From Candidatus Omnitrophota bacterium (lineage in GTDB: Bacteria; Omnitrophota; Gorgyraeia; Zapsychrales; Fredricksoniimonadaceae): a DNA stretch of 64,000 bases. How positions within the stretch are numbered: the stretch's first letter is position 1; each line of letters begins with the position of its first letter. The notes below the pieces were generated by a model. That model did no database searches, was not told the origin of the DNA, and saw nothing but the letters and a program-made list of their open reading frames with translations. The position numbers were made by a program, and so were the translations under genes. Positions 1 to 49,368 of this stretch are shown piece after piece. Location of the stretch: NCBI GenBank assembly GCA_903860135.1, contig CAIOPG010000007.1, positions 66,100 to 130,099 on the forward strand. Reading direction: 5' to 3'.

Positions 1-500
1 CCTCCGGGGCATCGCTTCAGGACAGGAGCAGGTCCCGTAATCTGGAGAGTGCTTATTATAATGTTGCATTCCGCTTTTTTATCTGGCGGGATATGTTGCG
101 GGAACTTGTTAGGGAGCGTGCTTTTCTGGGGTTTAGTTTTGGCAGGCCTCAGCGATCGGCGTCGCTTGAGATATTGCATTGGGGAGAGGGTGAGTGGTCA
201 AGGGATGGCTGGATAGCACCGCACAATGCTTTTTTGCATATGATTTACCGTGGGGGGATCGTAGGGCTTGGTGTTATCGTATTTATTCTGGTTGCGCTGG
301 GGGGCATGATGAAGAATTTCTTGCAGGTACAGTCCTGGAAGGGCGGCTTGCTACTGAGTGCGCTGGTTTACTGGATCGTGATCGCTCAATTTGGTGTGAT
401 CCTGGAATTGCCGTATAACGCGATTGCTTTTTGGGCATTGTTTGGCGGCACATGGGCGTATCGGGATAAACTTATAGCAGAATCCCTGCAGGGCGCATGA
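1..500 (+). CDS. O-antigen ligase / Wzy_C family membrane protein, C-terminal part (5' truncated by window edge)
   Basis: The frame is open from the window start to the stop at 500. The hydrophobic C-terminus carries PHNAFLHMIYRGGIVGLG, matching the Wzy_C motif HN-YLQM-AE-G-VGL that is also present in the 5697..7010 paralog. Confidence 0.6.
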   Translation, partial: SGASLQDRSRSRNLESAYYNVAFRFFIWRDMLRELVRERAFLGFSFGRPQRSASLEILHWGEGEWSRDGWIAPHNAFLHMIYRGGIVGLGVIVFILVALGGMMKNFLQVQSWKGGLLLSALVYWIVIAQFGVILELPYNAIAFWALFGGTWAYRDKLIAESLQGA

Positions 501-1612
501 TGGCGCATAAACCCCGCATCCTTATTTGTGGTGTCCTTCCACCACCGTATTTTGGCCACAGCATGCTTTATGAGATGCTCATGGCGTCATCTTTTCCCAA
601 AGCCTTTGATGTGTATTTCTTGAATATGCATTTCTGGTCTTATGGCACGAACAAGAAAGTAACGGCACTTAAACTTTTCAAATTATGTGCTTATTACGCG
701 CATTACCTTTGGGTCCTCGTTGTTTTTCGTCCCCGTTATATCCTTTATAATACAAGTTTTTACAAGATGCCGTTCTTGAAGGATTTTTTGTTTTGTGCGA
801 CAGGCATTATCGCGGGGCGGCGGCTGGTTATTCATGATCATGGCCAGTATGTGCGGGAATTGCATGATGCCTTGCCTGACTGGCAGAAGAACATGCTGGG
901 CTGGCTGCTGGCCCGTGCCGCAGGAAGCATTGTGATGGGGGAACGCGTCCGTCCTGTTTATGATGGGTTGATGGATCAGGCCAAGATCGTTGTTGTCCCC
1001 GGCGTTGTGGCGGATACGCAGGGCATGGATGTGACGCCGGACAGGCCTGCGGAAGACTGTTTCAATGTCGTTTATTTTTCACACATGAGCCGGGACAAGG
1101 GGATCTTTGTGGCGTTTGAGACCGCGCGCGAGATCCTGCAGATGCGCCGGGATGTGGTCATGACCTTCGGCGGGCCGATCGAGAATGATGTTGTTCGTGC
1201 CGGTCTTGAGGCGCTCCAGCAGGAGTATCCTCAACGCGTCCGCTATCTGGGGTATGTGGACGATGCCAGCCGGCGCACCGAGATCTTTCGCGGGGCTGAT
1301 GTGTTCCTGTTTACGACGTTACGGGATGTCTTTGGACTGGTGCTCCTGCATGCCATGGCCGAGGGGCGGCCTATTGTTGCTTCGCGCGAAGGGACGATCC
1401 CGGAAATTGTCATCGACGGGGAGACCGGGCTTCTGTTTGATAAAGGAAATTCAAGGATGTGCGCGGGGGCTGTCTTGAGGCTTCTCGATGATAAAGATTT
1501 ATGCCTTAAGATGGGCGCCGCCGGCCGCCACAGGTTCGAGTCTGTTTATGCCATTGACACGTATGGCCCGCGCATGACAGATGTATTCTTTCAGATGGAA
1601 GGGGCTTTATAA
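497..1612 (+). CDS. glycosyltransferase family 4 (GT1-fold)
   Basis: 371 aa. C-terminal GT4 signature RPIVASREGTIPEIVIDGETGLLFDKGN (the EX7E-like region). ATGA start/stop overlap with the upstream gene. Confidence 0.85.
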   Translation: MMAHKPRILICGVLPPPYFGHSMLYEMLMASSFPKAFDVYFLNMHFWSYGTNKKVTALKLFKLCAYYAHYLWVLVVFRPRYILYNTSFYKMPFLKDFLFCATGIIAGRRLVIHDHGQYVRELHDALPDWQKNMLGWLLARAAGSIVMGERVRPVYDGLMDQAKIVVVPGVVADTQGMDVTPDRPAEDCFNVVYFSHMSRDKGIFVAFETAREILQMRRDVVMTFGGPIENDVVRAGLEALQQEYPQRVRYLGYVDDASRRTEIFRGADVFLFTTLRDVFGLVLLHAMAEGRPIVASREGTIPEIVIDGETGLLFDKGNSRMCAGAVLRLLDDKDLCLKMGAAGRHRFESVYAIDTYGPRMTDVFFQMEGAL

Positions 1613-1978
1613 ATTCGGGTTCCACCCGCAGGTTTTCTTTTTATTTAGAAATGCGGAACAAATCATAGGGTGTGAAAGATCGTATGGCCATAGCAATCAT
1701 CTTGAAGTCAGGGGCAAATATTTTCAAGCAGAAAGCTTGGTTATTCTTGTTTGTTTTTTGTTTTATTTATTGGGCATATTTGATTGCCCATACAACCATG
1801 CCGATCGTCTTTGATTCTATTGATTATGAGAATACGGGAAAGATCATTTATCAGCAGGGGGGCTGGAGTTCGACCCCGCTAAACATGTTCGGAAATGTCT
1901 GTAGATTAATCTTGCCGACAAGAGATTACGGTGTTATATTTCTGTTAATAATCATTTTTGATTATCTATGGAAACAAT

Positions 1979-2614
1979 ATGAAATTTGATGACTTCAAGA
2001 AAGAATTCAAATCTAGGATGTATATTCTGAGCCGGGATGTGCGGACGGATCAGGAAGATCATCAGGCTATGTTGAATCAATTATCCCGTTGGCAGAAAAG
2101 GGGTTTGATTCTTCCTTTACGCAAGGGGGTTTACGTATTGGGGCCTACACAATCAAGCAGTTCTCCTGATCTATTGATGCTGGCCAATATTATTTATGAA
2201 CCATCTTATGTCAGCTTGGAATATGCGCTCCATTTTTATGGTTTGATCCCCGAACGTGTCATGCAAGTCACCTCGATCACGACACGTAAGACAAAAAGCT
2301 TCAAGAATAGTTTTGGATGTTTTGTGTATCAGCATCTTAAGCCCTGCGCTTTCAGAGGTTTCAGGCAAGAGTTGGGGAAGGGCGGGTCTTTCTTTCTGGC
2401 GGAACCGGAAAAGGCCGTAGTGGATTTTCTTTATTTGAATCTGGCACGTTTTACGCATGATCCCTGCCGGGTGATGCAAGAGTCTTACCGGTTTCAGAAT
2501 ATGGAAGACTTACAGCCGGCTCGGTTACTGGAATTGGGACATTTGTTTGAATGCAAGAAATTGATGAAAGTGATCGGAACTTTAACAGAATTTTTGCACC
2601 AGGAGTGTTTATGA
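1979..2614 (+). CDS. abiEi: AbiEi-family antitoxin (type IV TA / abortive infection), transcriptional regulator
   Basis: Central region LANIIYEPSYVSLEYALHFYGLIPE is typical of AbiEi antitoxin domains. It sits directly upstream of an AbiEii nucleotidyltransferase with an ATGA overlap. Start may be 1958 or 1979. Confidence 0.7.
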   Translation: MKFDDFKKEFKSRMYILSRDVRTDQEDHQAMLNQLSRWQKRGLILPLRKGVYVLGPTQSSSSPDLLMLANIIYEPSYVSLEYALHFYGLIPERVMQVTSITTRKTKSFKNSFGCFVYQHLKPCAFRGFRQELGKGGSFFLAEPEKAVVDFLYLNLARFTHDPCRVMQESYRFQNMEDLQPARLLELGHLFECKKLMKVIGTLTEFLHQECL

Positions 2615-3411
2615 TCGATGTCATCCGGCAGCAATTGAAAGCGGAGATGACGGACAGGCAGAAAGAAAACATGACGCGTGAATTCTTGCAGATTCTTTGC
2701 CTTAAGTTGATGCATGACAAAAAAATGTTTGAGGATGTTGCGTTCCTTGGGGGCACATTGTTAAGGCTTCTGTTTGATATGCGCCGTTTCTCGGAAGACC
2801 TGGATTTTTCCCTGATCCGGCCGGGGGATTATGCGATCGCGCAAGTCGCCGATGAGCTTGTAGCGGCACTGCGTTTGTATGGTTTTTCCGTTGAGGCCAA
2901 GGTCAGGATGAATGGTGCTGTTCAGAGCTGTTTACTCAAGTTTGAAGGGCTTCTTAAGGAGCTTGGGCTGTCACCTCTTAAAAGCCAGAAATTATCCATT
3001 AAGATCGACGTAGATACGCGTCCGCCTGATGGGTGGACATTGTCCCGCACACTGGTGAGTAAAACATTTGTTTTTACGGTTACGCATTATGACCAGCCGT
3101 CTCTCTTTGCCGGGAAATTGCACGCGTGTTTTTATCGCACATATACCAAAGGGCGCGACTTTTATGATCTTTTTTGGTATTTGGGCAAGAAAGTACGTCC
3201 GAATTTCTTGTTGCTTAATAATGCTGTTCGGCAAACGCAGGGTATTGATGCCGGGATCAACGAGGGTAACTGGAAATATTTTCTTTTGGAAAAGGTCAAG
3301 AATGTTGATATGATTGATGCTCGGGAAGATGTTCGGCTATTCCTTGAGGATGACAATGAATTAAGGCTCTTTGATGCGGGTATTTTATCGGATGCGATCA
3401 AAGGGGGGTGA
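2611..3411 (+). CDS. abiEii: AbiEii/AbiGii-family nucleotidyltransferase toxin (DUF1814)
   Basis: N-terminal motif FLGGTLLRLLFDMRRFSEDLDFS is the DUF1814/AbiEii nucleotidyltransferase signature (GG[ST]..R......R.S.DLDF). Translationally coupled to abiEi. The ORF track extends the frame to 2551; the ATG at 2611 overlaps the abiEi stop. Confidence 0.8.
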   Translation: MIDVIRQQLKAEMTDRQKENMTREFLQILCLKLMHDKKMFEDVAFLGGTLLRLLFDMRRFSEDLDFSLIRPGDYAIAQVADELVAALRLYGFSVEAKVRMNGAVQSCLLKFEGLLKELGLSPLKSQKLSIKIDVDTRPPDGWTLSRTLVSKTFVFTVTHYDQPSLFAGKLHACFYRTYTKGRDFYDLFWYLGKKVRPNFLLLNNAVRQTQGIDAGINEGNWKYFLLEKVKNVDMIDAREDVRLFLEDDNELRLFDAGILSDAIKGG

Positions 3412-3511
3412 TGATTGAAGAATGCGGGGAAAGAAGTGAACGGATTGAACAGCGAATGCTTGAACTTGTGATAAAGGGTGGTTGTAAAAACAGCAATGGC
3501 AGGCAGACGGC

Positions 3512-4282
3512 ATGAGATCATTTGAATCGGCGGTTGATGGGTACGATGTCTTGGGTGTAAGGATCTCGGCCGTTAATCCTTTGAAAGCCGAGGCGGTGAT
3601 CGCGGACATGATCGCACGCCGGGCCAAAGGTTATGTGTGCGTGGCGCCGGTAGCCACGGTCATGGATTGCCAGAAGGATCCGGATTACCGCGTGCTGGTG
3701 AACAATGCCGCCATGGTTACGCCCGATGGCGCGCCGATCGCCTGGCTGGGGCGGCTGGCCGGGCATCAGGATGTCCGCCGCACCTATGGCCCCGGATTGA
3801 TGGAACAGCTCTGTGATCATGGCAGAGCCTTGGGCTGGAGGCACTTCTTTTATGGTGGCACACCTGAAGCCTGCACGCAGTTGGAGCGTGTCTTGACGGC
3901 CAGGTTCCCGGGGATCGATATCGTCGGCAAGTTATCACCGCCGTATACGCCCCAAGCTATGCCGCTCGCTGTGGACGTGGCGCGTCTTATCAATGCGGCC
4001 AAACCTGATATTATATGGGTCGGATTGGGGGCGCCGAAACAGGATTTCTGGAATGTGATCAATCGCCCTGTGCTTGAAGCACCTGTCCTGGTTGGCATTG
4101 GTGCCGCTTTTGATTTCATTTCCGGTTTAAAACCGCAGGCCCCTGGTTGGATCGGCTCGATGGGATTGGAATGGCTTTTTCGTTTGGGCTGTGAGCCTGG
4201 GCGGCTCTGGCGGCGGTATTTGATCGGCAACACCGTGTTCGTATGGCTTCTGGTCAAAAGCATTTTTCGGAGGGGGAGATGA
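3512..4282 (+). CDS. WecB/TagA/CpsF family glycosyltransferase (GT26)
   Basis: 256 aa. The VLGVRISAVNPLKAEAVIADMIARRAKGYVCVAPVATVM..GTPE...ARFPGIDIVG pattern is typical of N-acetylmannosaminyltransferase-like GT26. Confidence 0.85.
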   Translation: MRSFESAVDGYDVLGVRISAVNPLKAEAVIADMIARRAKGYVCVAPVATVMDCQKDPDYRVLVNNAAMVTPDGAPIAWLGRLAGHQDVRRTYGPGLMEQLCDHGRALGWRHFFYGGTPEACTQLERVLTARFPGIDIVGKLSPPYTPQAMPLAVDVARLINAAKPDIIWVGLGAPKQDFWNVINRPVLEAPVLVGIGAAFDFISGLKPQAPGWIGSMGLEWLFRLGCEPGRLWRRYLIGNTVFVWLLVKSIFRRGR

Positions 4283-5697
4283 TCAAGCGCATATCCGGTA
4301 TTTTTATCCGCACGGCATACATTTCGTTTGATATTGTCAGTGTTCTTTTGGCGATCTTCATCGCGTGTCACTTGAGGGAGCGTGCGTTCCCGGTTGACCT
4401 GCGGGCGCTTTTTCTCGATACAGCCAATCCCTTTCACCTTGTATTCTTGAGTTGGCTGATCGCTGTGCTTTGTTTCAACAGCATATACCAACTTTACGCC
4501 ACGCACCGGGAATGGATGCGCGGGCATGAATTCGGACAGATACTGCGGACGGTCTTTTTCTCTGGGATCATTGTTATGGCGTTTGTTTATACGGCCAAGG
4601 TTTACAATTTTCCCCGTTCGGTATTCCTGCTGATGATGCTTTTGACAGCCGCATTTCTTATATTATGGCGCACCGTAAAAAATCAGTTTGTTGCCTTTCT
4701 GGTGGCGCACGGGTATAACAATTTCAACGTGATCATTATTGGTGCCGGCAAGGTCGGGCTGATGCTTGCCGCCGAGATCGAACGACGCCCGGAGATGGGG
4801 CTGCGCATCGCCGGGTTTCTCGATGATAACAAGAAGAATGAAGCTGTGGGTGGCCGTTACCCGGTGCTGGGGCGGTTGTCTGATCTGCCGGATGTTGCGG
4901 CGCGGCATTTTGCGCACAAGATCATGGTCACGATCCATCCGGACAGCGATGTTTTTCACGCAATCCTTGATACGGCTGATGATCTGGGGCTGGGGGTCCG
5001 TGTGGTGCCCCAGGCTTTCGACAGGGCTGCGGGAGAACTCCTGAAATACAATATCGGTCTTATCCCGGTCCTTGAATACTGCGATATCGGGCATGCGCGC
5101 CGACAATCGGGCAAACGGGCTTTCGACCTTGTTCTTTCCCTGCTGGGGTTGATCGTTCTGATGCCGCTCTTCGTGTGCCTTGCGGTATTGATCAAAGGCG
5201 ATAGCCGTGGACCTGTTTTTTATTTTTCAAAACGTTATGGTCGAGGTGGTCAGGTATTCCGGATGTGGAAGTTCCGCAGTATGTCGGCTGATGCTGAATC
5301 CCGGCTTGAAGCCCTGAAAGAAAAGAACGAGGTCGATGGGCCTATTTTCAAAATTAGGCAGGATCCTCGGGTAACGCGGTTGGGACGCTTTCTGCGCAAG
5401 TACAGCCTTGATGAGTTGCCGCAGATCATCAATGTCCTGCTGGGGGATATGAGCATTGTCGGCCCGCGGCCGCTGCCCCTTGACCAGGTCGAGCAGGAGG
5501 ATTTTAAACAGCTCAAGCGCCTCGAGGTCCATCCGGGGATCACCGGGCTTTGGCAGGTCAGAGGTCGCAGTGACCTGACCTTTGGGCAGTTGGTAAAATG
5601 GGATATCTGGTATATCAACAACTGGTCATTCGTGCTGGATTTACAGATCCTCCTGGAAACGGTTCCTGTTGTGTTAAAGGGGAAAGGAGCCTACTAG
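4279..5697 (+). CDS. polyprenyl-phosphate sugar phosphotransferase (bacterial sugar transferase, WbaP/EpsB-like)
   Basis: N-terminal TM helices, then the C-terminal Bac_transf domain: FDLVLSLLGLIVLMPLF...GPVFYFSKRYGRGGQVFRMWKFRSM...LDELPQIINVLLGDMSIVGPRP. The ATG at 4279 overlaps the upstream stop and is preceded by GGAGGGGGAG. Confidence 0.9.
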   Translation: MIKRISGIFIRTAYISFDIVSVLLAIFIACHLRERAFPVDLRALFLDTANPFHLVFLSWLIAVLCFNSIYQLYATHREWMRGHEFGQILRTVFFSGIIVMAFVYTAKVYNFPRSVFLLMMLLTAAFLILWRTVKNQFVAFLVAHGYNNFNVIIIGAGKVGLMLAAEIERRPEMGLRIAGFLDDNKKNEAVGGRYPVLGRLSDLPDVAARHFAHKIMVTIHPDSDVFHAILDTADDLGLGVRVVPQAFDRAAGELLKYNIGLIPVLEYCDIGHARRQSGKRAFDLVLSLLGLIVLMPLFVCLAVLIKGDSRGPVFYFSKRYGRGGQVFRMWKFRSMSADAESRLEALKEKNEVDGPIFKIRQDPRVTRLGRFLRKYSLDELPQIINVLLGDMSIVGPRPLPLDQVEQEDFKQLKRLEVHPGITGLWQVRGRSDLTFGQLVKWDIWYINNWSFVLDLQILLETVPVVLKGKGAY

Positions 5698-7010
5698 TGA
5701 AAAATCTGAACAGACTTGGGACGGTGGATGTTGATGCGATAATCCTATGGCTTGACCGCGCCGCTTTTGTCTGCCTTTGCGCGCTGGTGTTTATCCTGCC
5801 GGTGTCAACGGCAGGGGTTGAGATATTTGGTTCGCTGGCGGTATTGTTCTTTCTGATGAACCGGGGATTGACCGCAAGGCAAAAAGGGGTTGGGGCGTTG
5901 ATACCCACAGGTGTCAGCCTCAGGATCGCTATTCCCCTTCTCGTTTTTTTGGCTATGTGCGGGATGTCCATTCTCTGGAGCGTTGATCCACAGCTGAGCT
6001 TCCGGGCTTTTGCCGGGAAATCGGTCGGTGCCGCTCTTCTCTTTTGGACAGCTGCGGGTACGTTCACATCGCGGGCAAGGCTGCTGCGCCTGGGTGGGGT
6101 CCTTTTGGCATCGGCGTTTATTGTTTCCCTCGATGGCTTTTGGCAATTATGGCAGGGTCATGATCTTTTCAAAGGAGAAGCCCTCTCCGGTGGGCGTGTC
6201 TGTGCGGCCATGCGGCATCCCAATGGTTTTGGGGCTTATTTGCTCTTTGCTATTCTTCCAGCTTTTGCGTTGACGTGCTGGTCCCTGACCCGTGAGGCGC
6301 ACGGTCTGTTTAATTCCTGGCGGGGGCGTTTACTGCTGGTCGGATTAACAGTTGTCTTGTGTGCGGCTATCGGGTTTACATTTTCACGCGGTGCCTGGAT
6401 CGGTCTGTTCGCGGGGGTGGTGGTCTTGATCGTCTTACGGCCAGGCTACTTCTTGCCGCTGGCTCTGGCGGCGGGTTTGTTCCTGATCATTTTTTCACCA
6501 CTGATCATTTCTTTGCGGCATGTGGGGGTGCTTTCGGATTCGCCTTCAGTCACCAACATCTTTGATACGACCAACATCAATGGTACGGGCAGGATCGGCT
6601 TCTGGAAGGATGCTTTGCGGGTGATCGCCGAGCATCCCGCGGGCACGGGCTTAAATACATATACGACGGTCATCCGGCAATATCCGGTGGCGTGGCGCGC
6701 CTATCCCCATAATTCATATTTGCAAATGGCGGCGGAGATCGGTGCCGTTGGCCTGACGGTATTCTTGTGGTTTATCTGGAGCTTTATATGGCAGACAGCC
6801 GGGAGGATCAGGCGGTTCCGCCACGACGTGACAGGGGCGTTGATCACGGGCCTGTTGGCAGGGTGGGTGGGCGTCATGGTGCAGAGCGGGCTGGACACAA
6901 CCTTTTATTCGGTGCAGTTAAGCCGGATGCTTTGGCTGATGATGGGGCTCCTTCTGGCGGCAGTCTTGATCGAGAGCAAGGATAGTCCGGAACCGGAAAC
7001 AAAGGCTTGA
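5697..7010 (+). CDS. O-antigen ligase / Wzy_C family polytopic membrane protein
   Basis: Multiple TM helices. Motifs RGAWIGLFAGVVVLIV and PHNSYLQMAAEIGAVGL (Wzy_C). GTG start at 5697 overlaps the upstream TAG and is preceded by AAAGGGGAAAGGAG. Confidence 0.8.
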   Translation: MKNLNRLGTVDVDAIILWLDRAAFVCLCALVFILPVSTAGVEIFGSLAVLFFLMNRGLTARQKGVGALIPTGVSLRIAIPLLVFLAMCGMSILWSVDPQLSFRAFAGKSVGAALLFWTAAGTFTSRARLLRLGGVLLASAFIVSLDGFWQLWQGHDLFKGEALSGGRVCAAMRHPNGFGAYLLFAILPAFALTCWSLTREAHGLFNSWRGRLLLVGLTVVLCAAIGFTFSRGAWIGLFAGVVVLIVLRPGYFLPLALAAGLFLIIFSPLIISLRHVGVLSDSPSVTNIFDTTNINGTGRIGFWKDALRVIAEHPAGTGLNTYTTVIRQYPVAWRAYPHNSYLQMAAEIGAVGLTVFLWFIWSFIWQTAGRIRRFRHDVTGALITGLLAGWVGVMVQSGLDTTFYSVQLSRMLWLMMGLLLAAVLIESKDSPEPETKA

Positions 7011-7013
7011 GAT

Positions 7014-7041
7014 TTGACAAACCCGTTTCGCAATATATAAT
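7014..7041 (+). promoter_or_regulatory. sigma70-like promoter upstream of pgk (TTGACA-16bp-TATAAT)
   Basis: TTGACA at 7014-7019 and TATAAT at 7036-7041 with a 16-bp spacer, ~95 bp upstream of the pgk ATG. Confidence 0.55.
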
Positions 7042-7133
7042 GCTTAAAATTTTTAAATTCCTTTTTTCCATAACCTAGTTAAGGGGCGGAAGAAAAAACG
7101 GTTTTTTAACCATTACTGTTTCTGGAGGACTGT

Positions 7134-8354
7134 ATGAGCAAGATGACGGTGCGCGACATTGATCTTAAAGGGAAACGGGTCATTATCCGGGTGGACTTCA
7201 ATGTGCCGCTCGATGGCGACCATATTACAGATGATATCCGTATCCGGGCGGCAATCCCGACGATCAAATATGTCGTGGAGCATGGCGCGGCCAAGGTGAT
7301 TTTGATGAGCCATCTGGGGCGTCCGGCCGGCAAGGGGTTTGAAAAAGAATTTTCGCTGGCGCCGGCGGCGCAGCGTCTGGCCGAATTGCTCGGTCAGCCG
7401 GTAACCCTCCTGGCGGATTGTGTCGGTGAGGCTGTCAGTAAGGAAGCCGCGGCGGCCCCGGCGAAGATCCTTCTGCTGGAGAATCTCCGGTTCCATAAAG
7501 AAGAAGAAAAGAACGACCCTGCTTTTGCCAAAGAGCTGGCGTCGCTCGCTGATGTTTATGTTAATGATGCCTTCGGAACGGCGCACCGCGCCCACGCCTC
7601 GACGGCAGGGCTGGCGGCGTATTTGCCGGCGGTCAGCGGGTTCCTGATCGAGAAAGAGATCGAGTATCTCGGTAAAGCGATCAATGCCCCGGAGCGTCCG
7701 TTCGTGGTTGTGCTCGGCGGCAAGAAAGTGTCCGACAAGATCCTCTTGATCGAAAATCTGCTGAAAAAGGCGGATACTATCCTGATCGGCGGCGGCATGG
7801 CCTACACCTTTCTTAAGGCGCGCGGCATCAATATCGGCAATTCCAAACTTGAAAAAGACAGGATCGAACTCGCGGCCGAGATCATGACCAAGGCCATGGC
7901 GGCCGGGGTTCAGATCGAAATGACTGAAGATTTTGTGATCGTTCCCAATTTTGATTCTGATGATGCCCAGATCTCGGATGTGATCCCGGACGGGTTCGAA
8001 TCACTGGATATTGGCCCCAAGACACGTGCCAAGTTCAAGGCCATTCTTTCTGGGGCCAGGACGGTCATCTGGAACGGTCCGCTGGGTGTTTTTGAACGCG
8101 CGGCATTCGAGAATGGCACCAAAGAGATCGCCCTGCATCTGGCGTCCTTGCACGATAAGGGCGTTAAAACCATCATTGGCGGCGGTGATTCCGCGGCGGC
8201 GGTGGCGAAGTTCGGGTTGGAAGACAAGATGACGCATATTTCCACGGGCGGCGGCGCGGCGCTCGAGTATCTTGAAGGCAAGGAGCTTCCGGGAATAACG
8301 GCGCTCAATGACAAGAAAAAGGCATCGGGCTGCTGTTGCGGCGGATGCCGGTAA
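7134..8354 (+). CDS. pgk: phosphoglycerate kinase
   Basis: [64 protein letters not shown] is a classic PGK N-terminus. Confidence 0.95.
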
Positions 8355-8375
8355 GCCATAACCAAAGAGGTTTTT

Positions 8376-9131
8376 ATGCGCAGGAAGATCATCGCAGGTA
8401 ACTGGAAAATGTACAAGAATCCGGCGGAAGCCGTGGCTCTCGTTGAGGGGTTGAAGAAGGAACTGGCCGGACAGACGGCGGTGGATGTGGTTGTTTGTCC
8501 TCCGTTTGTCAGTCTGACGGAAGCGGCAAGGGGGCTCGCGGGTTCAGCTATAGCACTCGGCGCGCAGAATCTTTTTTGGGAAGCCGAAGGGGCGTTTACG
8601 GGAGAGATCTCCGGTGCCATGATCAAGGCGTCGGGTGCGGAATATGTTATCATTGGGCATTCCGAGCGTCGTCAGTATTTTGGTGAGTCCAATGAGACGG
8701 TCAACCGGCGCCTCAAGGCCGCTTTCAGGTATGCATTAAAGCCCATTGTTTGTGTGGGCGAGAATCTGGCCGAGCGCGAAGCGGGTAAAACGTTTGACGT
8801 GGTCAAGGATCATTTGACCGGGTCTTTGGCGGGCTTGACCAAAGAAGACATGAACACCGTTGTCATTGCCTATGAACCTGTGTGGGCCATCGGTACCGGC
8901 AAGACAGCCACTTCAGCGCAGGCCCAGGAAGTGCATCAGTTCATCCGCGGCATCCTTGTCCGCCTGTTTGATGAACCGACGGCCGAGGCGGTAAGGATCC
9001 AGTATGGTGGCAGTGTGAAGCCTGAGAATGCAGCAGAACTCATGTCCCAGCCGGACATTGACGGGGCGCTGGTCGGAGGCGCGAGCCTGAAGGCGGATTC
9101 ATTTGCGGCCATCATCAAGAATGCGGCTTAA
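8376..9131 (+). CDS. tpiA: triose-phosphate isomerase
   Basis: [10 protein letters not shown] start and an IGHSERR-type motif. Conserved pgk-tpiA-secG order. Confidence 0.95.
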
Positions 9132-9145
9132 TTAAAGGAGTTTTT

Positions 9146-9496
9146 GTGATCACTTTTATCACTGTCATCCATGTTATTACCTGTGTGCTTTTGATCGCTT
9201 CCATCCTGATGCAGTCGGGCAAGGGCGGCGGCCTGGCGCAGGGGTTTGATTCGGCGGAAAATCTGCTCGGTGCCCAGACCAATCAGTTCATCCTCAAGGT
9301 GACAACAACGCTTTGCGTCATCTTTTTAGCGACGTGCATCGCCACAGCGCTTTTGACATCGAAGAAACAGCGTTCGTTGCTTGACGCCATGCCTGATGCG
9401 CGCAAGGCACCGGTGACCGTGAATGTCGAGAAACTCTTTGACCAGGCTCCCGCGCAGACCATCGTGATCAATGCGGCGACCAACAGCGCCGAGTGA
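9146..9496 (+). CDS. secG: preprotein translocase subunit SecG
   Basis: Small two-TM protein with LLIASILMQSGKGGGL. GTG start after AAAGGAG. Confidence 0.85.
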   Translation: MITFITVIHVITCVLLIASILMQSGKGGGLAQGFDSAENLLGAQTNQFILKVTTTLCVIFLATCIATALLTSKKQRSLLDAMPDARKAPVTVNVEKLFDQAPAQTIVINAATNSAE

Positions 9497-11220
9497 AAAG
9501 CTTCTCAGGTTTTTTAACGGGCACAACAGGGTTATTCCTGTTGTGCTCTTTTATTTTAGCGGCCACGCCCGCTGGCGTTAATGGTGCGGTGATGCCGCGT
9601 TATGGCGGGGCGATCTTCCTGGCGACGACCTCGGATCCGCGTTCGTTCAATCCCATCCTTGCCAAGGAATCATCGACCACCCTGATGACGCGTCACATGT
9701 TTGAAGGGCTGACGACCATGGATCCTTTCACGCTCAAGGTTATCCCCGCTCTGGCGGAGCGCTGGGAGGCGGACCCGGGTGGCCTCGTCTGGACTTTTCA
9801 CCTCCGCAAAGGGCTTCTTTGGTCCGACGGGGTTGCTTTGACGGCGGCTGATGTGGCGTTTACGTTCAATGACCTTATCTTTAATGACGATGTGCCTAAT
9901 TCCGCGCGCGATATTTTTACCCTTGAAGGCAAGCCGATCCGGGTTGAGGCTGTTGATGCCCAGACGGTTCGATTTATCCTGCCGGTGCCCTTTGCGCCTT
10001 TTTTAAGAAGCCTAGGGCAGGAGATATTGCCCCGGCATGTACTTGCCGAAGCTGTCCGGGCCAAGAAATTCGCCTTTACCTGGGGGATCGATGCCCGGCC
10101 GGACACTATCGTCGGGACAGGGCCTTATAGGCTGGCGGAGTATCAGCCGGGGCGTCGGGTTGTTTTTCGCGCCAATCCGTATTATTGGAAGAAGGCCGCT
10201 GACGGTGCCCGGTTGCCCTATATCCCCAAGATCGAATATGTCATTGTTCCCGGGACGGATGTCGAGCTCCTGAAGTTCATCGAGGGCAGTCTGGATGCTT
10301 ACACCCTGCGCGGCATGGACTATCCTTTGTTAAAACCGCAGGAGTCAGCCCGAGGCTTCACGGTATACGATCTCGGACCGGATATGGGGACAAGTTTTAT
10401 CACGTTCAATCAGAATCCCGGCAACAATCCTGTGAGCGGCAAGCCCTATGTGGTGGCCCGCAAGCGCGCCTGGTTCACGGATATCCGTTTCCGTCAGGCG
10501 GTGGCGCATGCGGTCGACAAGCAACGCATCATTGAGATCGTCAAGAACGGCCTGGGGTATCCCCAGGATTCTCCGGAAAGCCCGGCTGCGGGATTTTTCT
10601 ATTGCGCGGATGTCAGGAAGTATACGTATGACCTGGATGCGGCGCGGGAGCTTTTGGCGGCAATGGGTTTTGCGGACAAGGATGGCGACGGGATCCTCGA
10701 GGACGGAGACGGGTTAAAGCTCGAGTTTAACCTTTACACGAATGCCGACAGCACCGAACGCGCCGACGTGGCCGCCATCATCCGCAGTGACCTGGAGCGC
10801 GTGGGCATGAAAGTCAATCTTCAGCTGGTGGAGTTCAATACACTGGTCGCCAAGCTGACATCAACGTATGACTGGGATGCCGTTATCCTTGGCCTTACCG
10901 GCGGTGTTGATCCTCATTTCGGGCAGAATGTCTGGCGTTCTTCCGGCCAGCTGCATCTGTGGAATCCCCGGCAGGCCGCTCCGGCAACCGCATGGGAAAA
11001 ACGCGTGGATGATATCTTTTCCGCCGGGGTGCAGGAGTTCAATGAGGACAAAAGAAAAGCCCTTTATGATGAATACCAGAAGATCGTCGCTGAGGAATTG
11101 CCGGTGGTCTATACCGCGCTCGGCGCTCAGCTCATGGCGGTGAAGAACCGCTTCGGCAACCTCAAACCATCGCCGTTGGGCGGGGTTTTTCATAACATTG
11201 AAGAAATATACATCAAGTGA
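9493..11220 (+). CDS. ABC transporter substrate-binding protein, peptide/nickel family 5 (OppA/DppA-like)
   Basis: 575 aa with a signal peptide and SBP_bac_5-type sequence. Followed (after the insertion) by two permeases and two ATPases. Confidence 0.85.
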   Translation: MKSFSGFLTGTTGLFLLCSFILAATPAGVNGAVMPRYGGAIFLATTSDPRSFNPILAKESSTTLMTRHMFEGLTTMDPFTLKVIPALAERWEADPGGLVWTFHLRKGLLWSDGVALTAADVAFTFNDLIFNDDVPNSARDIFTLEGKPIRVEAVDAQTVRFILPVPFAPFLRSLGQEILPRHVLAEAVRAKKFAFTWGIDARPDTIVGTGPYRLAEYQPGRRVVFRANPYYWKKAADGARLPYIPKIEYVIVPGTDVELLKFIEGSLDAYTLRGMDYPLLKPQESARGFTVYDLGPDMGTSFITFNQNPGNNPVSGKPYVVARKRAWFTDIRFRQAVAHAVDKQRIIEIVKNGLGYPQDSPESPAAGFFYCADVRKYTYDLDAARELLAAMGFADKDGDGILEDGDGLKLEFNLYTNADSTERADVAAIIRSDLERVGMKVNLQLVEFNTLVAKLTSTYDWDAVILGLTGGVDPHFGQNVWRSSGQLHLWNPRQAAPATAWEKRVDDIFSAGVQEFNEDKRKALYDEYQKIVAEELPVVYTALGAQLMAVKNRFGNLKPSPLGGVFHNIEEIYIK

Positions 11221-11261
11221 TGCGGAGTGTCTGCCGGGTATGCTTAAATATGTCTTGTGAG

Positions 11262-11315
11262 AAAAGGAAAGGGCAGTCCCTGCGCTGGGGACAGATCAAT
11301 AAATTCGGGTTGTAC
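11262..11315. repeat. left copy of ~55-bp direct repeat (GGAAAGGGC + GC-rich short inverted repeat + AATAAATTCGGGTTGTAC) flanking the YhcG-like gene
   Basis: About 50/55 nt identical to 12647..12701. It contains a GTCCC..GGGAC inverted repeat. Confidence 0.8.
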
Positions 11316-11346
11316 ATTGGTCGTTTTTGGATGCCCCCCACCCATG

Positions 11347-11377
11347 CCCGCCCCACGGCGGGGGCGGGTGTTATTTT
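11347..11377 (+). terminator. rho-independent terminator-like hairpin (CCCGCCCC-acggcg-GGGGCGGG + TGTTATTTT)
   Basis: 8-bp GC stem with a 6-nt loop followed by a T-rich tract, downstream of the SBP gene. Confidence 0.6.
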
Positions 11378-11419
11378 AGTCATGACTGATAATGGCAATA
11401 TTCGAGGGTTATAGTATGT

Positions 11420-12688
11420 GTGCGGCCAGTAAGATTCAGGAACGGATTGTGGTTGCTGGTAGAAATGGAGGCAAAGAGAGCGATGAATAAGAATAAATCT
11501 TTAAATAATTCGCTGTTCGAACGGGTTGTTTTTATTCTGGAAGCTGCACGATCTAATGTTGTGCGAGCTGTTAATACCAACATGGTCATTGCTTACTGGC
11601 TTATTGGTCGGGAGATTGTGCAGGAAATTCAGGGCGGTGTCGGTCGGGCAAAGTACGGCGAGAAAGTGCTAAAACAGCTTTCTTCACAATTAAAAGAAAA
11701 GTATGGTCGTGGGTATTCTATCAGTAACGTACAGTATTTTAGGACGTTTTACACGGTTTATGCGGAGCGCAAGCCTGAGATTCACCAGATCGGATCTGGT
11801 GAATTGCTCAAACAGGCAGACAAACGAAATGTCGTCGGTGCTCGTGAAGATATGTCGTTGGCAATCGAGACAAGCACGGCCATTCGGGGGTTTTCTCCGA
11901 ATCTTGGTTGGTCACATTATCAGGTACTGATGACTGTTGAAAATAACAATGAACGTCTGTTCTACGAGATAGAGGCGGAGAAGGAGAATTGGGATGTTAA
12001 GCATCTGAAGCATCAAGTTTATTCATTCCTTTTTGCCAGGCTCATGAAAAGCAAGAATAAAGACGGTATGATGGCATTGGTGCGCGAAGGACAAAAGATT
12101 ACGACTCCAACTGATATTATTAAGAGCCCATATATTCTCGATTTTCTAGGCATTCCTGATGCAGACCAGTTACATGAAACAAAGTTGGAAGAGGCAATTA
12201 TATCTAATATTCAGTCTTTCCTTCTGGAATTGGGAAAAGGTTTCGCTTTTGTTGGTCGGCAGAAGCGTCTTCAATTTGATGAAGATTATTATTACGTGGA
12301 TCTCGTTTTTTATAATTGTATTTTGAAGTGTTTTTTGTTGATCGATTTAAAAATAGGGGAGCTGACCCATCAGGATGTTGGTCAAATAGACAGTTATGTG
12401 CGTATGTTTGATGATAAATATCGCACGGAGGGAGACAATCCGACTATAGGATTGATTCTATGTGCAAAAAAGAGCGAAACCATAGCACGATATTCCGTAC
12501 TTAAAGGAAGCAAACAAATTTTTGCATCCAAGTATATGTTGTATTTGCCGACAGAAGATATGTTGCGGCGAGAAATTGAGCGTGAACAACGCCTGATTGA
12601 AGAAAAGATATCGAAAGACGAAATGGCTGATCACCGAAAGAACTTGAAAGGGAAAGGGACAGTCCCTGCACCGGGGACAGGGCAATAA
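11420..12688 (+). CDS. YhcG-like DUF1016 protein with C-terminal PD-(D/E)XK nuclease domain
   Basis: N-terminal SLNNSLFERVVFILEAARSNVVRAVNTNMVIAYWLIGREIVQE is typical of DUF1016/YhcG. C-terminal YYYVDLVFYN...LIDLKIG fits the D...(D/E)xK nuclease motif. AT-rich codon usage, unlike the neighbours. The true start is likely the internal ATG near 11465 or 11483. The last ~14 codons are encoded by the right flanking repeat. Confidence 0.7.
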   Translation: MRPVRFRNGLWLLVEMEAKRAMNKNKSLNNSLFERVVFILEAARSNVVRAVNTNMVIAYWLIGREIVQEIQGGVGRAKYGEKVLKQLSSQLKEKYGRGYSISNVQYFRTFYTVYAERKPEIHQIGSGELLKQADKRNVVGAREDMSLAIETSTAIRGFSPNLGWSHYQVLMTVENNNERLFYEIEAEKENWDVKHLKHQVYSFLFARLMKSKNKDGMMALVREGQKITTPTDIIKSPYILDFLGIPDADQLHETKLEEAIISNIQSFLLELGKGFAFVGRQKRLQFDEDYYYVDLVFYNCILKCFLLIDLKIGELTHQDVGQIDSYVRMFDDKYRTEGDNPTIGLILCAKKSETIARYSVLKGSKQIFASKYMLYLPTEDMLRREIEREQRLIEEKISKDEMADHRKNLKGKGTVPAPGTGQ

Positions 12689-12701
12689 ATTCGGGTTGTA
12701 C
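12647..12701. repeat. right copy of ~55-bp direct repeat flanking the YhcG-like gene
   Basis: GAAAGGGAAAGGGACAGTCCCTGCACCGGGGACAGGGCAATAAATTCGGGTTGTAC, near-identical to 11262..11315. It overlaps the 3' end of the YhcG-like CDS and lies 18 bp upstream of the permease start. Confidence 0.8.
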
Positions 12702-12718
12702 CTAGGAATTGATTTGAT

Positions 12719-13684
12719 ATGTTCAAATACATTATAAAACGAATGTTGATCGCGCTGGGCCTGCTCCTGGTCATGAGCTGTGCGACGTTCATGCTCATGC
12801 GCCTGACGCCGGGGAATTTTCTGGATACGTTGCGCCTTGATCCGCAGATATCCAAGGACACACTGGCGTACTACAGCCAGTTGTATCAGCTCGACAAGCC
12901 GGCCTGGCAGCAGTATCTGCACTGGCTGGCGGGCCTCTTTCGCGGTGAGCTGGGGTATTCTTTTTATTATAATGTCCCGGTGGCTAAAATTATTGGCGCG
13001 CGCCTGGGCAATACCTTTATCCTGTCGCTGGCGGCATTTCTGGTGACCTGGCTGGCGGCTATTCCGCTGGGGATCTGGGCGGCCCTTCATCGCGGCAACT
13101 GGCGTGACCGCGCGATACAGTTTGCCGCCTATGCTGTCGTGTCTTTGCCTGGTTTCTTCGTGGCCATGGTCTTGCTTTATTGGGCGAGCATCACAGGTTG
13201 GCTTCCGCTGGGCGGCATGGAGAGTCCCGGTGCCGGCGATCTGTCCTGGTGGGCCCGGGGGCTCGACAGGCTCAGGCACCTGGTCATTCCGGTGACGGCC
13301 CTTTCACTGGCGTCGATCGCGTTATTGCAAAAGATCATGCGCGGCAATATGCTCGAGGAACTTGGGAAACAGTATATCTTCGCGGCCCGGGCGAGAGGGA
13401 TACCGGAGAACCGGGTCATTTACAGCCATGCCCTGCGCAATGCCATCAATCCCATGATCACCCTGCTGGGGTATGAATTCGCGGCACTTTTAAGCGGCGC
13501 GGCGCTCATGGAGATCATCACTAGCTGGCCCGGCCTTGGGAGCCTCATGCTGACAGCGGTCCGTTCCAAGGATATTTATCTGGTGATGGCAAATATGATG
13601 ATGGGTGGTATTTTGTTTATGGTCGGAAACCTTCTGGCGGATATCGCTCTTGCCAAGGCGGACCCGCGGATAAGGATCAGGTGA
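12719..13684 (+). CDS. ABC transporter permease (OppB/DppB-like)
   Basis: N-terminus MFKYIIKRMLIALGLLLVMSCATFMLMRLTPGNFLD with the permease EAA-loop region. Confidence 0.9.
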   Translation: MFKYIIKRMLIALGLLLVMSCATFMLMRLTPGNFLDTLRLDPQISKDTLAYYSQLYQLDKPAWQQYLHWLAGLFRGELGYSFYYNVPVAKIIGARLGNTFILSLAAFLVTWLAAIPLGIWAALHRGNWRDRAIQFAAYAVVSLPGFFVAMVLLYWASITGWLPLGGMESPGAGDLSWWARGLDRLRHLVIPVTALSLASIALLQKIMRGNMLEELGKQYIFAARARGIPENRVIYSHALRNAINPMITLLGYEFAALLSGAALMEIITSWPGLGSLMLTAVRSKDIYLVMANMMMGGILFMVGNLLADIALAKADPRIRIR

Positions 13685-14781
13685 TGCCAATGGAAACACC
13701 GCGCGGTGAAACGGGTTTGGCCTGGCAGCGGTTCATGAAAGATCGTGCGGCGGTTGTCGCGCTGTGGATCCTGGGGATATTTTATGCCGTGGCCATCCTG
13801 GCCGATGTGGCGGCACCGTATACGCTTAAGGATGAATCGCGCGAACATCCCTATTGCCCGCCCACGGCGGTGCATTTCTTCGCGCCCGACGGGCGTTTTG
13901 CCGGAGCTCATGTGCGCGGGGTTCAAATGACCTATGATCATTTCCGGCGGCGTATTTACAATGAAACCGCAGACATCTATCCGCTGAGATTTTTCGGTCG
14001 GGGTGAAACGTACCGCTTCCTTGGGGCTTTTCCGGCGGACAGGCATATCATCACGGTTGATGCGCCGGGGCGTATTTATTTATTGGGAGCGGACAGCCGG
14101 GGGCGCGATGTGTTTTCAAGGATCATCCACGGCGCGCGGGTTTCGCTGACGATCGGCTTGTTCGGTGTTCTGATTTCTTTTAGCATAGGCTTGCTGGTGG
14201 GCGGTATTGCGGGATATTTTGGCGGGCGGACGGACCATGTCCTCATGCGCCTGTGCGAGATGGTGATGATGGTGCCGGGGTTTTACCTTTTGCTGGCGTT
14301 GCGCGCCGCGGTTCCGGACAGCCTGGATTCCTTGCAGGTTTATGCCGCGATCATAATCATCCTTTCGTTTATCGGGTGGGCCGGATTAGCGCGTGTTATC
14401 CGCGGGATGTGCCTTTCGTTGAAGGAACGGGATTATGTGCTGGCCGCGCGCACCATGGGCTTGAGTGACCTGCAGATCATTGTGCGCCATATCCTGCCGC
14501 ACACGCTTTCCTATTCACTGGCGGCTGTGACGTTAGCCGTGCCCGGGTATATCCTGGGCGAGTCAGCCTTGAGCCTTATCGGCCTGGGCATTCAGGACCC
14601 TTACGCGAGCTGGGGCAATATGCTCGCCGAGGCCATGAGCATTGTGCGGATACAGTTTGCCCCGTGGATCCTTTGGCCGGCGTTTTTTATAGGGATAACG
14701 GTCTTGTGTTTTAATGCGGCAGGTGATGCCCTGCGCGATGCGTGGGATCCGTTGCTCAAAGGCCGCGGGGAGGGCGCATGA
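13681..14781 (+). CDS. ABC transporter permease (OppC/DppC-like)
   Basis: N-terminal OppC_N-like region followed by a BPD_transp_1 membrane domain. ATGA coupling on both sides. Confidence 0.9.
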   Translation: MMPMETPRGETGLAWQRFMKDRAAVVALWILGIFYAVAILADVAAPYTLKDESREHPYCPPTAVHFFAPDGRFAGAHVRGVQMTYDHFRRRIYNETADIYPLRFFGRGETYRFLGAFPADRHIITVDAPGRIYLLGADSRGRDVFSRIIHGARVSLTIGLFGVLISFSIGLLVGGIAGYFGGRTDHVLMRLCEMVMMVPGFYLLLALRAAVPDSLDSLQVYAAIIIILSFIGWAGLARVIRGMCLSLKERDYVLAARTMGLSDLQIIVRHILPHTLSYSLAAVTLAVPGYILGESALSLIGLGIQDPYASWGNMLAEAMSIVRIQFAPWILWPAFFIGITVLCFNAAGDALRDAWDPLLKGRGEGA

Positions 14782-15530
14782 ATACGCCGTTGCTCGCTGC
14801 CCGCGGGATCACCCTGGCGTTGCGTGAAAGGCCGGGGACGCTGATCCTCAACGATGTTTCACTGGTTGTCCCGCGGGGCAAGATCATCGGGGTTGTGGGT
14901 GGCTCGGGCAGTGGGAAAACCACCCTGGCTTGTATGCTTCTGGGTTTTGTGCCCGAGGCGATGCGCCTTAAAAGCGGACAGGTCCTGTGGGAAGGGAAAA
15001 ATATTCAGGCTATGGATGCACACACGCTCCGCCATTGGCGCGGGGGGCGGGTGAGCCTGTCGTTCCAGGAACCGGCGAGTGCTTTTGACCCGGTGTTTAC
15101 CGTTGGTGATCAAATCACTGAAATGCTGATGGCCCATGGCGGGAACGGGCGAGCCCGGGCGCAGGAAAAGATGTTGGAATTTTTGGCGTTGGCAGGGGTC
15201 GATGATCCGCGGCGTGTGGCCGCTGGGTATGTGCATGAATTATCCGGCGGCTTGCGTCAACGGGCGATGATCGCGCTGGCGGTTTGCACGCGGCCGGCGG
15301 TTCTTGTTGCCGACGAACCCACCAGCAGTCTGGATGTTATCTTGCAGGCCAGGATCATGGCGCTCTTTCGCACGCTCCGCCGGGAGCTCGACTTGTCGAT
15401 CGTCCTTATCACGCACGACCTTGGCATGGTTCAGCGCCTCGCTGATGCGACGGTTATCCTTGTCCGTGGCCGGGTTGTTGCAGGGGATCATCCGGAAGCG
15501 CAGGCATTGCTGTCAGCCGGGGGGATGTGA
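14778..15530 (+). CDS. ABC transporter ATP-binding protein (OppD/DppD-like)
   Basis: Walker A GGSGSGKTT, signature LSGGLRQR, Walker B LVADEPTSSLD. The likely start MNTPLLAARG at 14778 overlaps the upstream stop. Confidence 0.9.
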   Translation: MNTPLLAARGITLALRERPGTLILNDVSLVVPRGKIIGVVGGSGSGKTTLACMLLGFVPEAMRLKSGQVLWEGKNIQAMDAHTLRHWRGGRVSLSFQEPASAFDPVFTVGDQITEMLMAHGGNGRARAQEKMLEFLALAGVDDPRRVAAGYVHELSGGLRQRAMIALAVCTRPAVLVADEPTSSLDVILQARIMALFRTLRRELDLSIVLITHDLGMVQRLADATVILVRGRVVAGDHPEAQALLSAGGM

Positions 15531-15531
15531 T

Positions 15532-16290
15532 ATGCTTCTTCAGCTTGAAGGCTTGACTAAAAGATTTCCAGGGGGAGTGACCGCCCTTGACGGCGTGAGT
15601 GTTGACCTTGTCGCAGGTGAGCATCTCGGCCTTGTGGGAGAGTCCGGGTGTGGCAAGACCACGCTGGCGCGCATTGTCATGGGGCTTGTCATTCCTGATC
15701 AGGGGCGCGTATTGTTTGAAGGTCGGGAGCTTGTTTCAGCCAAGGAACGCCGGGGGCTTTTTTGCCGGAAAGCGCGCATGGTCTTTCAGGATCCTTTCTC
15801 CAGCCTTGATCCGCGTTTCACGGTGCGCGCCATCCTCAGGGAGGCGCTGGCCCTTGAACCGCGGATGAGGCTTGGGGAAGAACTGGGGCGCATGCGTGAA
15901 GTGCTGGGGCTTGTCCGCCTGCCGCCGGATATTCTGGCGCGTTACCCGCATGAATTTTCTGGTGGTGAGCGCCAGCGTATCGCGATCGCCAGAGCCCTCA
16001 TGAGCCAGCCGTCGTTGCTTGTTCTCGACGAGGTGCTGTCTTCACTGGACGTTCTGGTTCAGCAGGATATCCTGACCGTGCTTGAAGAGATACCGCGCCG
16101 CACAGGGGTGACCTATCTGTTCATTGCCCATAATTTGCGCACGGTCCGCCGGCTGAGCCGCCGGGTCGCTGTGATGCGCCGCGGGGTGATCGTTGAATAC
16201 GGCGGGTGTGAGGATCTTTTTTCGTCAGCTGTACATCCGTACACGCAGGCCCTCTTTAAAGCCGCTATTAACTATGAGGTAAGTGCATGA
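15532..16290 (+). CDS. ABC transporter ATP-binding protein (OppF/DppF-like)
   Basis: Walker A GESGCGKTT, signature FSGGERQR, Walker B LVLDEVLSSLD. Start MLLQLEGLTKRF immediately after the upstream stop. Confidence 0.9.
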   Translation: MLLQLEGLTKRFPGGVTALDGVSVDLVAGEHLGLVGESGCGKTTLARIVMGLVIPDQGRVLFEGRELVSAKERRGLFCRKARMVFQDPFSSLDPRFTVRAILREALALEPRMRLGEELGRMREVLGLVRLPPDILARYPHEFSGGERQRIAIARALMSQPSLLVLDEVLSSLDVLVQQDILTVLEEIPRRTGVTYLFIAHNLRTVRRLSRRVAVMRRGVIVEYGGCEDLFSSAVHPYTQALFKAAINYEVSA

Positions 16291-28735: not shown

Positions 28736-28812
28736 GGACGCATAGCTCAGCTGGTTAGAGCGCTGCCCTCACATGGCAGAGGTCGAAGGTTCAAGTCCTT
28801 CTGCGTCCACCA
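28736..28812 (+). tRNA. tRNA-Val (CAC), CCA encoded
   Basis: GGACGCATAGCTCAGCTGGTTAGAGCGCTGCCCTCACATGGCAGAGGTCGAAGGTTCAAGTCCTTCTGCGTCCACCA: perfect acceptor stem GGACGCA/TGCGTCC, anticodon loop CTCACAT. Confidence 0.88.
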
Positions 28813-28995
28813 ATGTCTTTAAGTGAAGATGTGCAGAAGGACTTGAATTGAGCCCCAGCAGTTTAATCGCGACGAATAGGAGCGATTAATGGGGCGACTG
28901 GCCGACCCGAAGGGCGCCAAGTCCTTCTGCGTCCACCAATGTCTTTAAGTGAAGATGTGCAGAAGGACTTGAATTGAGCCCCAGTAGTTCAATCG
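28793..28995 (+). repeat. 1.6 copies of a 126-bp tandem repeat starting within the 3' end of tRNA-Val
   Basis: The ~78-nt unit AAGTCCTTCTGCGTCCACCAATGTCTTTAAGTGAAGATGTGCAGAAGGACTTGAATTGAGCCCCAGYAGTTYAATCGC occurs at 28793 and again at 28919, separated by a unique 48 nt. Each unit contains a 13-bp-stem hairpin CAAGTCCTTCTGC...GCAGAAGGACTTG. Confidence 0.8.
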
Positions 28996-29011
28996 CATAG
29001 AAAGGCATATT

Positions 29012-49328: not shown

Positions 49329-49368
49329 GACTTAAAATTCGGGATTAAATAATACAGGAGATGTTAAG

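Follow-up and report, generated by a model that had tools for sequence, protein, structure and literature searches.

Intercistronic stem-loops of the REP/BIME type were reportedly described by Newbury, Stern, Higgins and colleagues in 1987-88 in the malE-malF spacer of E. coli and the hisJ-hisQ spacer of Salmonella. The element described here resembles these hairpins in lying after a binding-protein gene and before the first permease gene, and in forming a hairpin that is short and stable, with a variable loop on a conserved stem, within a spacer conserved above neutral sites; relatives also carry unrelated hairpins in the equivalent spacer. It differs from them in that it was found at one locus only, lacks a REP head and belongs to a conserved region that extends about 70 nt past the hairpin. 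A second known system is the attL/attR pair of genomic islets. The likeness there lies in imperfect direct repeats of about 56-60 nt around foreign-looking, AT-richer DNA and in a single-copy empty site, whereas the locus has no integrase, a single-gene insert, a divergence of the repeat arms that misfits a core crossover and no site reuse. The third system is that of the YhcG/DUF1016 accessory genes, whose 70-80% identical homologues are found across phyla in type I R-M and BREX-like operons. Here, in contrast, YhcG splits a transport operon of housekeeping function, and the DNA on both sides of it is a duplicated piece of the host. YhcG has been reported to piggy-back on integrative elements (PMC4316617).

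We analysed a 64-kb stretch of Omnitrophota DNA (the window), in which the exact 13-mer ATAAATTCGGGTT occurs at 1609, 11299 and 12685. The assignment to Candidatus Omnitrophota agrees with the names given to homologues of a binding protein encoded in it. The first-pass annotation had counted these three copies, and our search bore out the count, with all of them on the + strand. It had further proposed that they belong to a family of recombination sites used repeatedly for gene acquisition. We found support for one event, since the motif lies at both ends of a YhcG insert and L027 and L029 have a single-copy site, but for no family, and the borders of the AbiE segment lack the motif. The account that we favour, and consider probable, is that the motif is part of a native conserved spacer, found in one Candidatus Omnitrophota lineage, that was duplicated once when YhcG inserted, and that the third 13-mer is coincidental.

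Table 1. Features of the window that bear on the repeated element (R1, covariance model of the element).
Feature	Position	Strand	Remarks
Third 13-mer with GGAAGGGGC	1597..1621	+	Last GT4 codons (E-G-A-L-stop) and start of a 5-bp hairpin with T-run
Solute-binding protein gene (SBP_bac_5)	9493..11220	+	Pfam PF00496, E 2.5e-81; first gene of an Opp/Dpp-type ABC operon, upstream of the spacer
L copy of the spacer element	11261..11320	+	Purine tract, hairpin, CAATAAATTCGGGTTGTAC; direct repeat, R1 79.6 bits
Hairpin in L	11276..11292	+	GTCCCTG-CGC-TGGGGAC, G.T closing pair
Terminator-like hairpin	11344..11381	+	11 base pairs (8 G-C) and a T-rich tail; within the insert, close to its left end
Promoter-like site CTGATA-18-TATAGT	11386..11415	+	Upstream of YhcG; consensus match only
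YhcG/DUF1016 PD-(D/E)XK nuclease gene	11483..12688	+	Pfam PF17761, PF06250; called as 401 aa
R copy of the spacer element	12646..12706	+	Adjoins the permease start, still conserved; R1 87.6 bits
Hairpin in R	12662..12678	+	GTCCCTG-CAC-CGGGGAC, same as the L027 hairpin
First permease gene	12719..13684	+	Pfam PF00528, PF19300; downstream of the spacer

Two copies of a spacer element around YhcG

The gene order SecG-SBP-permease at this locus is also found in relatives by synteny, and a second permease gene of the importer lies at 13681-14781 (Pfam). In the window a 1.3-kb insert, made up of the terminator, the promoter-like site and the YhcG gene, separates the binding-protein gene from the permease genes. 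The copies to its left (L) and right (R) form an imperfect direct repeat of about 56-60 nt that is 85% identical ungapped and 89-90% identical with one gap, and blastn aligned L with 12646-12701 at 89% over 56 nt. The 13-mers at 11299 and 12685 both lie within this one direct repeat and are therefore non-independent. A box had been described 5' of all three 13-mers. It reads GGAAGGGGC at 1597 and GGAAAGGGC at 11265 as claimed, but GGAAAGGGA at 12651, with a final A and not C. Between box and 13-mer both L and R carry a 17-nt hairpin, GTCCCTG-NNN-YGGGGAC, and the 19-nt block CAATAAATTCGGGTTGTAC, which contains the 13-mer, is the same in the two copies.

We found the empty site in L027 (GCA_037141995.1), where the binding protein is 80% identical, YhcG is missing and one copy of the element lies in a 130-nt spacer, laid out as a purine tract, GGGACAGTCCCTGCACCGGGGACAGGGGAATAAATTCGGGTGTCAC and then about 70 nt to the permease ATG. 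The metagenome contig L029 has the same spacer, also without YhcG, and every contig with an identical permease has YhcG. L and R flank YhcG in the window, in L001 and in the close strain L003. The latter has a window-type L and YhcG, while its R differs and is followed by a long leader of the L027 type; TTGTAC is present in its L only, and its R keeps the ancestral GTCAC, reading ATAAATTTGGGTG / …GATAGTCCCTGTATCGGGGACAGGGCAATAAATTTGGGTGTCAC…. A single-copy spacer in a relative without YhcG, and two copies that bracket the insert in the window and L003, therefore indicate that about 56-60 nt were duplicated at a single insertion event.

That all three 13-mers, L and R included, are unrelated coincidences or assembly artefacts might be suggested by the origin of the window in a metagenome-assembled genome. 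However, the L/R arrangement is seen again in independent assemblies (L001, L002, L003 and five contig records), and L and R share 89-90% identity over 56 nt with covariance-model scores of 80-88 bits, so we give this reading practically no credence.

The two copies are unequal. Compared with the single copy of L027, L is identical at 37/47 positions and R at 45/48; L also has a 1-nt deletion and the G.T closing pair. The hairpin loop is variable (CAC, TAT, CGC) and the stem is kept. To judge by these sequences, R is the retained ancestral copy beside the permease, and L a diverged, redundant or foreign-derived one. Because L and R are identical over the 19-nt block in the window but not in L003, the simplest explanation of this identity is that a short patch of gene conversion joined the two copies in the window strain.

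The terminator-like hairpin just inside the insert is the best terminator-like site within positions 1-16000 and is the same in L003; a terminator scan found none between the YhcG and permease genes. The YhcG frame continues through R, and its TAA stop lies within the 13-mer. Since the C-terminal tails of the YhcG homologues are unrelated after ...RLIEE and nucleotide homology to other loci covers 11474-12605 only, the last ~27 YhcG codons are read-out into host sequence. With the insert in place, transcription of the binding-protein gene would stop at the strong terminator. Transcription of the permease genes would then come from YhcG, as there is no terminator between YhcG and them.

Several features of the leader were observed alongside. 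Aligning window 12700-12718 with L003 3930-3993 and L027 2056-2120 revealed that some 40-46 nt of conserved permease leader are lost in the window. Two features went with the lost part: another small hairpin, GAAGCTGGNGCTTTT, and an upstream ORF of 8 codons, ATGAATTTCAGGGATTGTTTCATTTGA, which in relatives ends with a stop codon overlapping the permease ATG. The purine tract of L027 (1994-2014, GGGGAAGGGAAGGGGAAAGGG) has four G-runs with 2-3-nt loops, a G-quadruplex-type motif that is not conserved in L003 or the window.

Constraint on the spacer and its proposed role

In relatives the spacer is about 113-130 nt long and consists of a purine tract, the 7-bp stem-loop GTCCCTG-NNN-CGGGGAC, the tract AATAAATTYGGGT and a leader to the permease ATG. 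When the window is compared with L027, identity is 48.9% at the fourfold-degenerate sites of the neighbouring permease gene and 77-79% over the flanking coding DNA. Against these fourfold sites, the identity of the R core with L027 (45/48, p 3e-11) and that of the spacer between L027 and L003 (97/113, p 2e-16) are far higher, and the spacer is therefore a constrained native intercistronic element. A hairpin conserved beyond neutral expectation in the spacer between binding-protein and permease genes is what marks the intercistronic stem-loops of ABC importers. The first-pass annotation had held that its recombination-site reading would fall if the motif turned out to be a conserved functional element. 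The motif does belong to a functional, strongly conserved spacer upstream of the permease, and it did not arrive with the insertions.

By analogy with the malE-malF and hisJ-hisQ hairpins, we infer that the spacer would be a cis-acting element that works at the level of the transcript, probably the mRNA. The stem-loop and the AU-rich tract would uncouple expression of the binding protein from that of the permease, with the hairpin and the following AAUAAAUU acting as a 3'-end protection or processing signal between the two genes. An RNase E/G gene is present in the window (Pfam). RNA folding of whole spacers gave energies no better than shuffles (z-scores about 0), and the stem showed no covariation, being invariant except for the closing pair. 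The + strand of the L027 spacer contains no sigma-70 promoter or intrinsic terminator consensus, and a search of Rfam with the spacer matched no family, either at the gathering threshold or with E relaxed to 10.

At the corresponding position of L021, L044, L045 and the P0141 locus, the spacer is short, unrelated or absent. A hairpin of unrelated sequence lies in the equivalent spacer of L021 (GCGCGG-CACG-CCGCGC) and also in that of L045.

The third 13-mer and the search for a family

The copy at 1609 had been taken for the left border of an AbiE islet. Comparison with L026 places the actual borders at 1871/1872 and 3429/3430, both without the motif; the 1609 copy lies at a distance of 250 nt. 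L026 aligns to window positions 119-1871 and 3430-3676, and between these blocks it has 3.6 kb with a 487-aa gene, a GT2 gene and a methyltransferase gene, in place of which the window has a 1.56-kb AbiEii-containing segment (1872-3429). The 1609 site and the next, AT-rich 250 nt are conserved in L025 and L026, both of which lack AbiE at that position.

Around this segment we also observed that the AT-rich stretch 1622-1871 is native cluster sequence outside the AbiE insert, that the 487-aa gene of L026 encodes a membrane protein, of which a truncated 5' fragment is left in the window at 1672-1871, and that the junctions of the AbiE segment carry no repeat and no motif.

It had also been argued that three exact copies were very unlikely to arise by chance. 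This estimate was mistaken. Once L and R are counted as one element, an exact 13-mer common to the 65-nt L/R element and the rest of the window arose in 14% of Markov simulations. The box GGAAGGGGC at 1597 encodes the end of GT4 (…MEGAL-stop). The covariance model R1 scored the 1609 site at 14.9 bits (E 0.16-0.22), while an evident chance match scored 12.4 bits; nhmmer found no link of this copy to L/R. Its downstream similarity to L/R reached p values of 0.10-0.18 in shuffle and control tests, and at the level of the window other regions aligned better to the spacer. An attractive alignment, in which the 1609 copy would share the whole leader (TAGAAATG, GGAAC and a short upstream ORF), failed the shuffle, control and window-level tests and was rejected. 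Thus the 1609 copy is probably a chance match that falls in coding and terminator sequence, and it is unconnected with the AbiE insertion. Against coincidence, it lies on the same strand as L/R, overlaps a stop codon as well and also has the GGAAGGGG box; it may be distantly related to L/R.

A supposed degenerate relative at 49336 amounts to a shared 9-mer at chance level. The window has five matches to this 9-mer, two of them outside the 13-mer copies compared with 1.36 expected by chance, and one of these two lies inside a CDS; we rejected both the 49336 site and the match at 33509 as family members.

Searches for further copies gave the same picture. With filters off, R1 found only L and R in the 64-kb window and only the orthologous spacer in 87 kb of relatives. 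The pattern GGAARGGGN{0,30}ATAAATTCGGGTT had 13 single matches, in unrelated taxa, in a genome collection without the source genome, compared with about 17 expected by chance. A first metagenome scan with GGGACAGNNCAATAAATTYGGGT gave no match, a second one with AGTCCCTGNNNNGGGGACAGNNNAA gave one real match (the orthologous spacer) and 15 that fit chance expectation, and viral scans found nothing related. The first-pass annotation had advised looking for a cognate recombinase or RAYT; a Pfam scan of 50 window ORFs revealed housekeeping genes and no integrase, transposase, RAYT or tyrosine recombinase.

These data bear on the reading that the motif is a dispersed REP/MITE-like family, with the 1609 copy as a hairpin-less member, whose copies serve as portable homology for gene gain. 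It could draw on the three exact 13-mers on one strand, on the absence of the element from the equivalent spacer of L021, L044, L045 and the P0141 locus, so that the element could itself have been inserted, and on the window R being closer to L027 than to the R of the close strain L003. Against it, the many dispersed copies typical of REP/BIME elements were not found in the window, in the 87 kb of relatives or in the metagenome hairpin scan, the 1609 copy scores close to a chance match and is not significant at window level, and its box is GT4 coding sequence. Nor does the structure fit. The arms GTCCCTG and CGGGGAC do not form a 20-40-nt palindrome with a GT[AG]G head and contain no GTAG or GTGG, no Y1 (RAYT) transposase gene is among the 50 window ORFs scanned, and the 113-130-nt spacer, at its single locus, has no terminal inverted repeats of the MITE kind. 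We regard this reading as quite improbable. There is no evidence for a reusable recombination-site family in the sequence scanned.

Origin of the duplication and exchange of the insert

The insert has a history of its own. In a comparison of the window with L003, identity at fourfold sites is 91-92% for the genes of the binding protein and the permease and 97.9% for YhcG; the segment from the terminator to YhcG (11341-12610) is 99.3% identical, compared with 96-97.5% in the flanks. A breakpoint lies near 12610, followed by a patch (12611-12718, the R region) that is highly divergent between the two. The YhcG segment is closer than its flanks and was therefore exchanged after the strains diverged; this pattern of identities indicates that the exchange, by recombination between strains, was recent.

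How the spacer came to be duplicated can be explained in more than one way. Transposase target duplications are much shorter than 56-60 nt, a point against our preferred account. L is also about 20% diverged from the ancestral type, and it could therefore derive from a foreign homologous copy and not from local duplication. The duplication may have come about by a long staggered break that was filled in, or a circle with a homologous copy on it may have integrated in the Campbell manner. A recombinase in trans may also have been the route, although this is weakened by the lack of a recombinase among the ORFs scanned, the reversed arm pattern and the lack of site reuse.

The last route is part of a fuller reading, in which L and R are attL and attR, the spacer is an attB-like site and a circular YhcG cassette brought an attP-like copy with a recombinase supplied in trans, as with integron cassettes or Xer-dependent modules. 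Such a system leaves an insert flanked by direct repeats and a lone copy where the insert is missing, as seen here with L and R and in L027 and L029. The identical 19-nt block with arms that diverge on either side, an L too diverged for an obviously recent local duplicate and a YhcG segment younger than its flanks between two strains (fourfold sites 97.9% versus about 91.5%) would fit it as well. However, the insert contains YhcG only, and neither it nor any of the 50 scanned ORFs of the window encodes a recombinase. A crossover in the 19-nt core would give the opposite arm pattern, the resident type being the left arm of R and not of L, and the identical core is missing from the R of L003. 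Among the insertions compared, no other uses the site: the AbiE borders lack the motif, as do YhcG homologues in other genomes, and at two other loci YhcG lies inside operons without flanking repeats.

The features of an integron attC site are missing too. Read from the sequences, R'' (RYYYAAC) and R' (GTTRRRY) boxes with an overall dyad are not found. In R, AAC and GTTGTAC stand some 52 nt from each other (AAC...GTTGTAC), but an AAC box is lacking in both L and L027, the latter has GTGTCAC, and the self-complementary part of the element is the central 7-bp stem only. The window ORFs scanned include no tyrosine recombinase, whereas an integron would have an IntI integrase and attI nearby. We rejected the attC reading on these sequence features, and we consider the attL/attR reading as a whole unlikely.

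Other YhcG loci were compared. On the groundwater contig L004, whose YhcG homologue is 81% identical, a 34-nt direct repeat (88% identical, at 5927-5960 and 8329-8362) brackets a 2.4-kb YhcG-DUF350-transglutaminase segment. The right copy of this repeat lies inside an intact pfkB, and the left one is a remnant of the N-terminal part of pfkB (KNILGGSAIH) that no longer codes. The degenerate copy thus precedes YhcG, the same polarity as for L and R. Two close homologues have no flanking repeats, one between hsdM and hsdS of a type I R-M system (L046, 5001-6185) and one between BrxC/PglY and a PglX-like methylase (L049, 5001-6179). We thus rejected the idea that YhcG inserts always come with long target duplications, which are seen in L004 and not in L046 or L049. 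The defence operons that house the L046 and L049 homologues are consistent with a defence-associated accessory role for the YhcG family. A bolder proposal is that defence cassettes of one gene each, moved in trans or by YhcG itself, use the spacer as their dedicated landing site and leave duplications of 35-60 nt of any target that they enter, so that L/R and the pfkB duplication of L004 would be two footprints of one undescribed mechanism; we hold this to be very improbable.

Elsewhere in the window we observed a 79-nt direct repeat, 97% identical, at 28792-28870 and 28918-28996. The first copy starts in the last 21 nt of a tRNA-Val gene (28736-28812) and the second lies 126 nt downstream. 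The pair looks like a local tandem duplication or like the att-type trace of a since-lost element whose integration site was the 3' end of the tRNA.

In our preferred account, in which a native spacer was duplicated once around YhcG, the case is an ordinary one, a new instance of already known kinds of feature. It removes a false lead, as a recombination-site family is unsupported here and the AbiE islet had been wrongly delimited. It also shows cleanly how a nuclease gene of the defence type, YhcG, has come to sit within an ABC operon of housekeeping function, flanked by two copies of the host regulatory spacer. For the Omnitrophota, it brings to light an undescribed non-coding spacer whose conservation (86-94%) exceeds that of second codon positions in the gene next to it and which is a possible cis-regulatory element.
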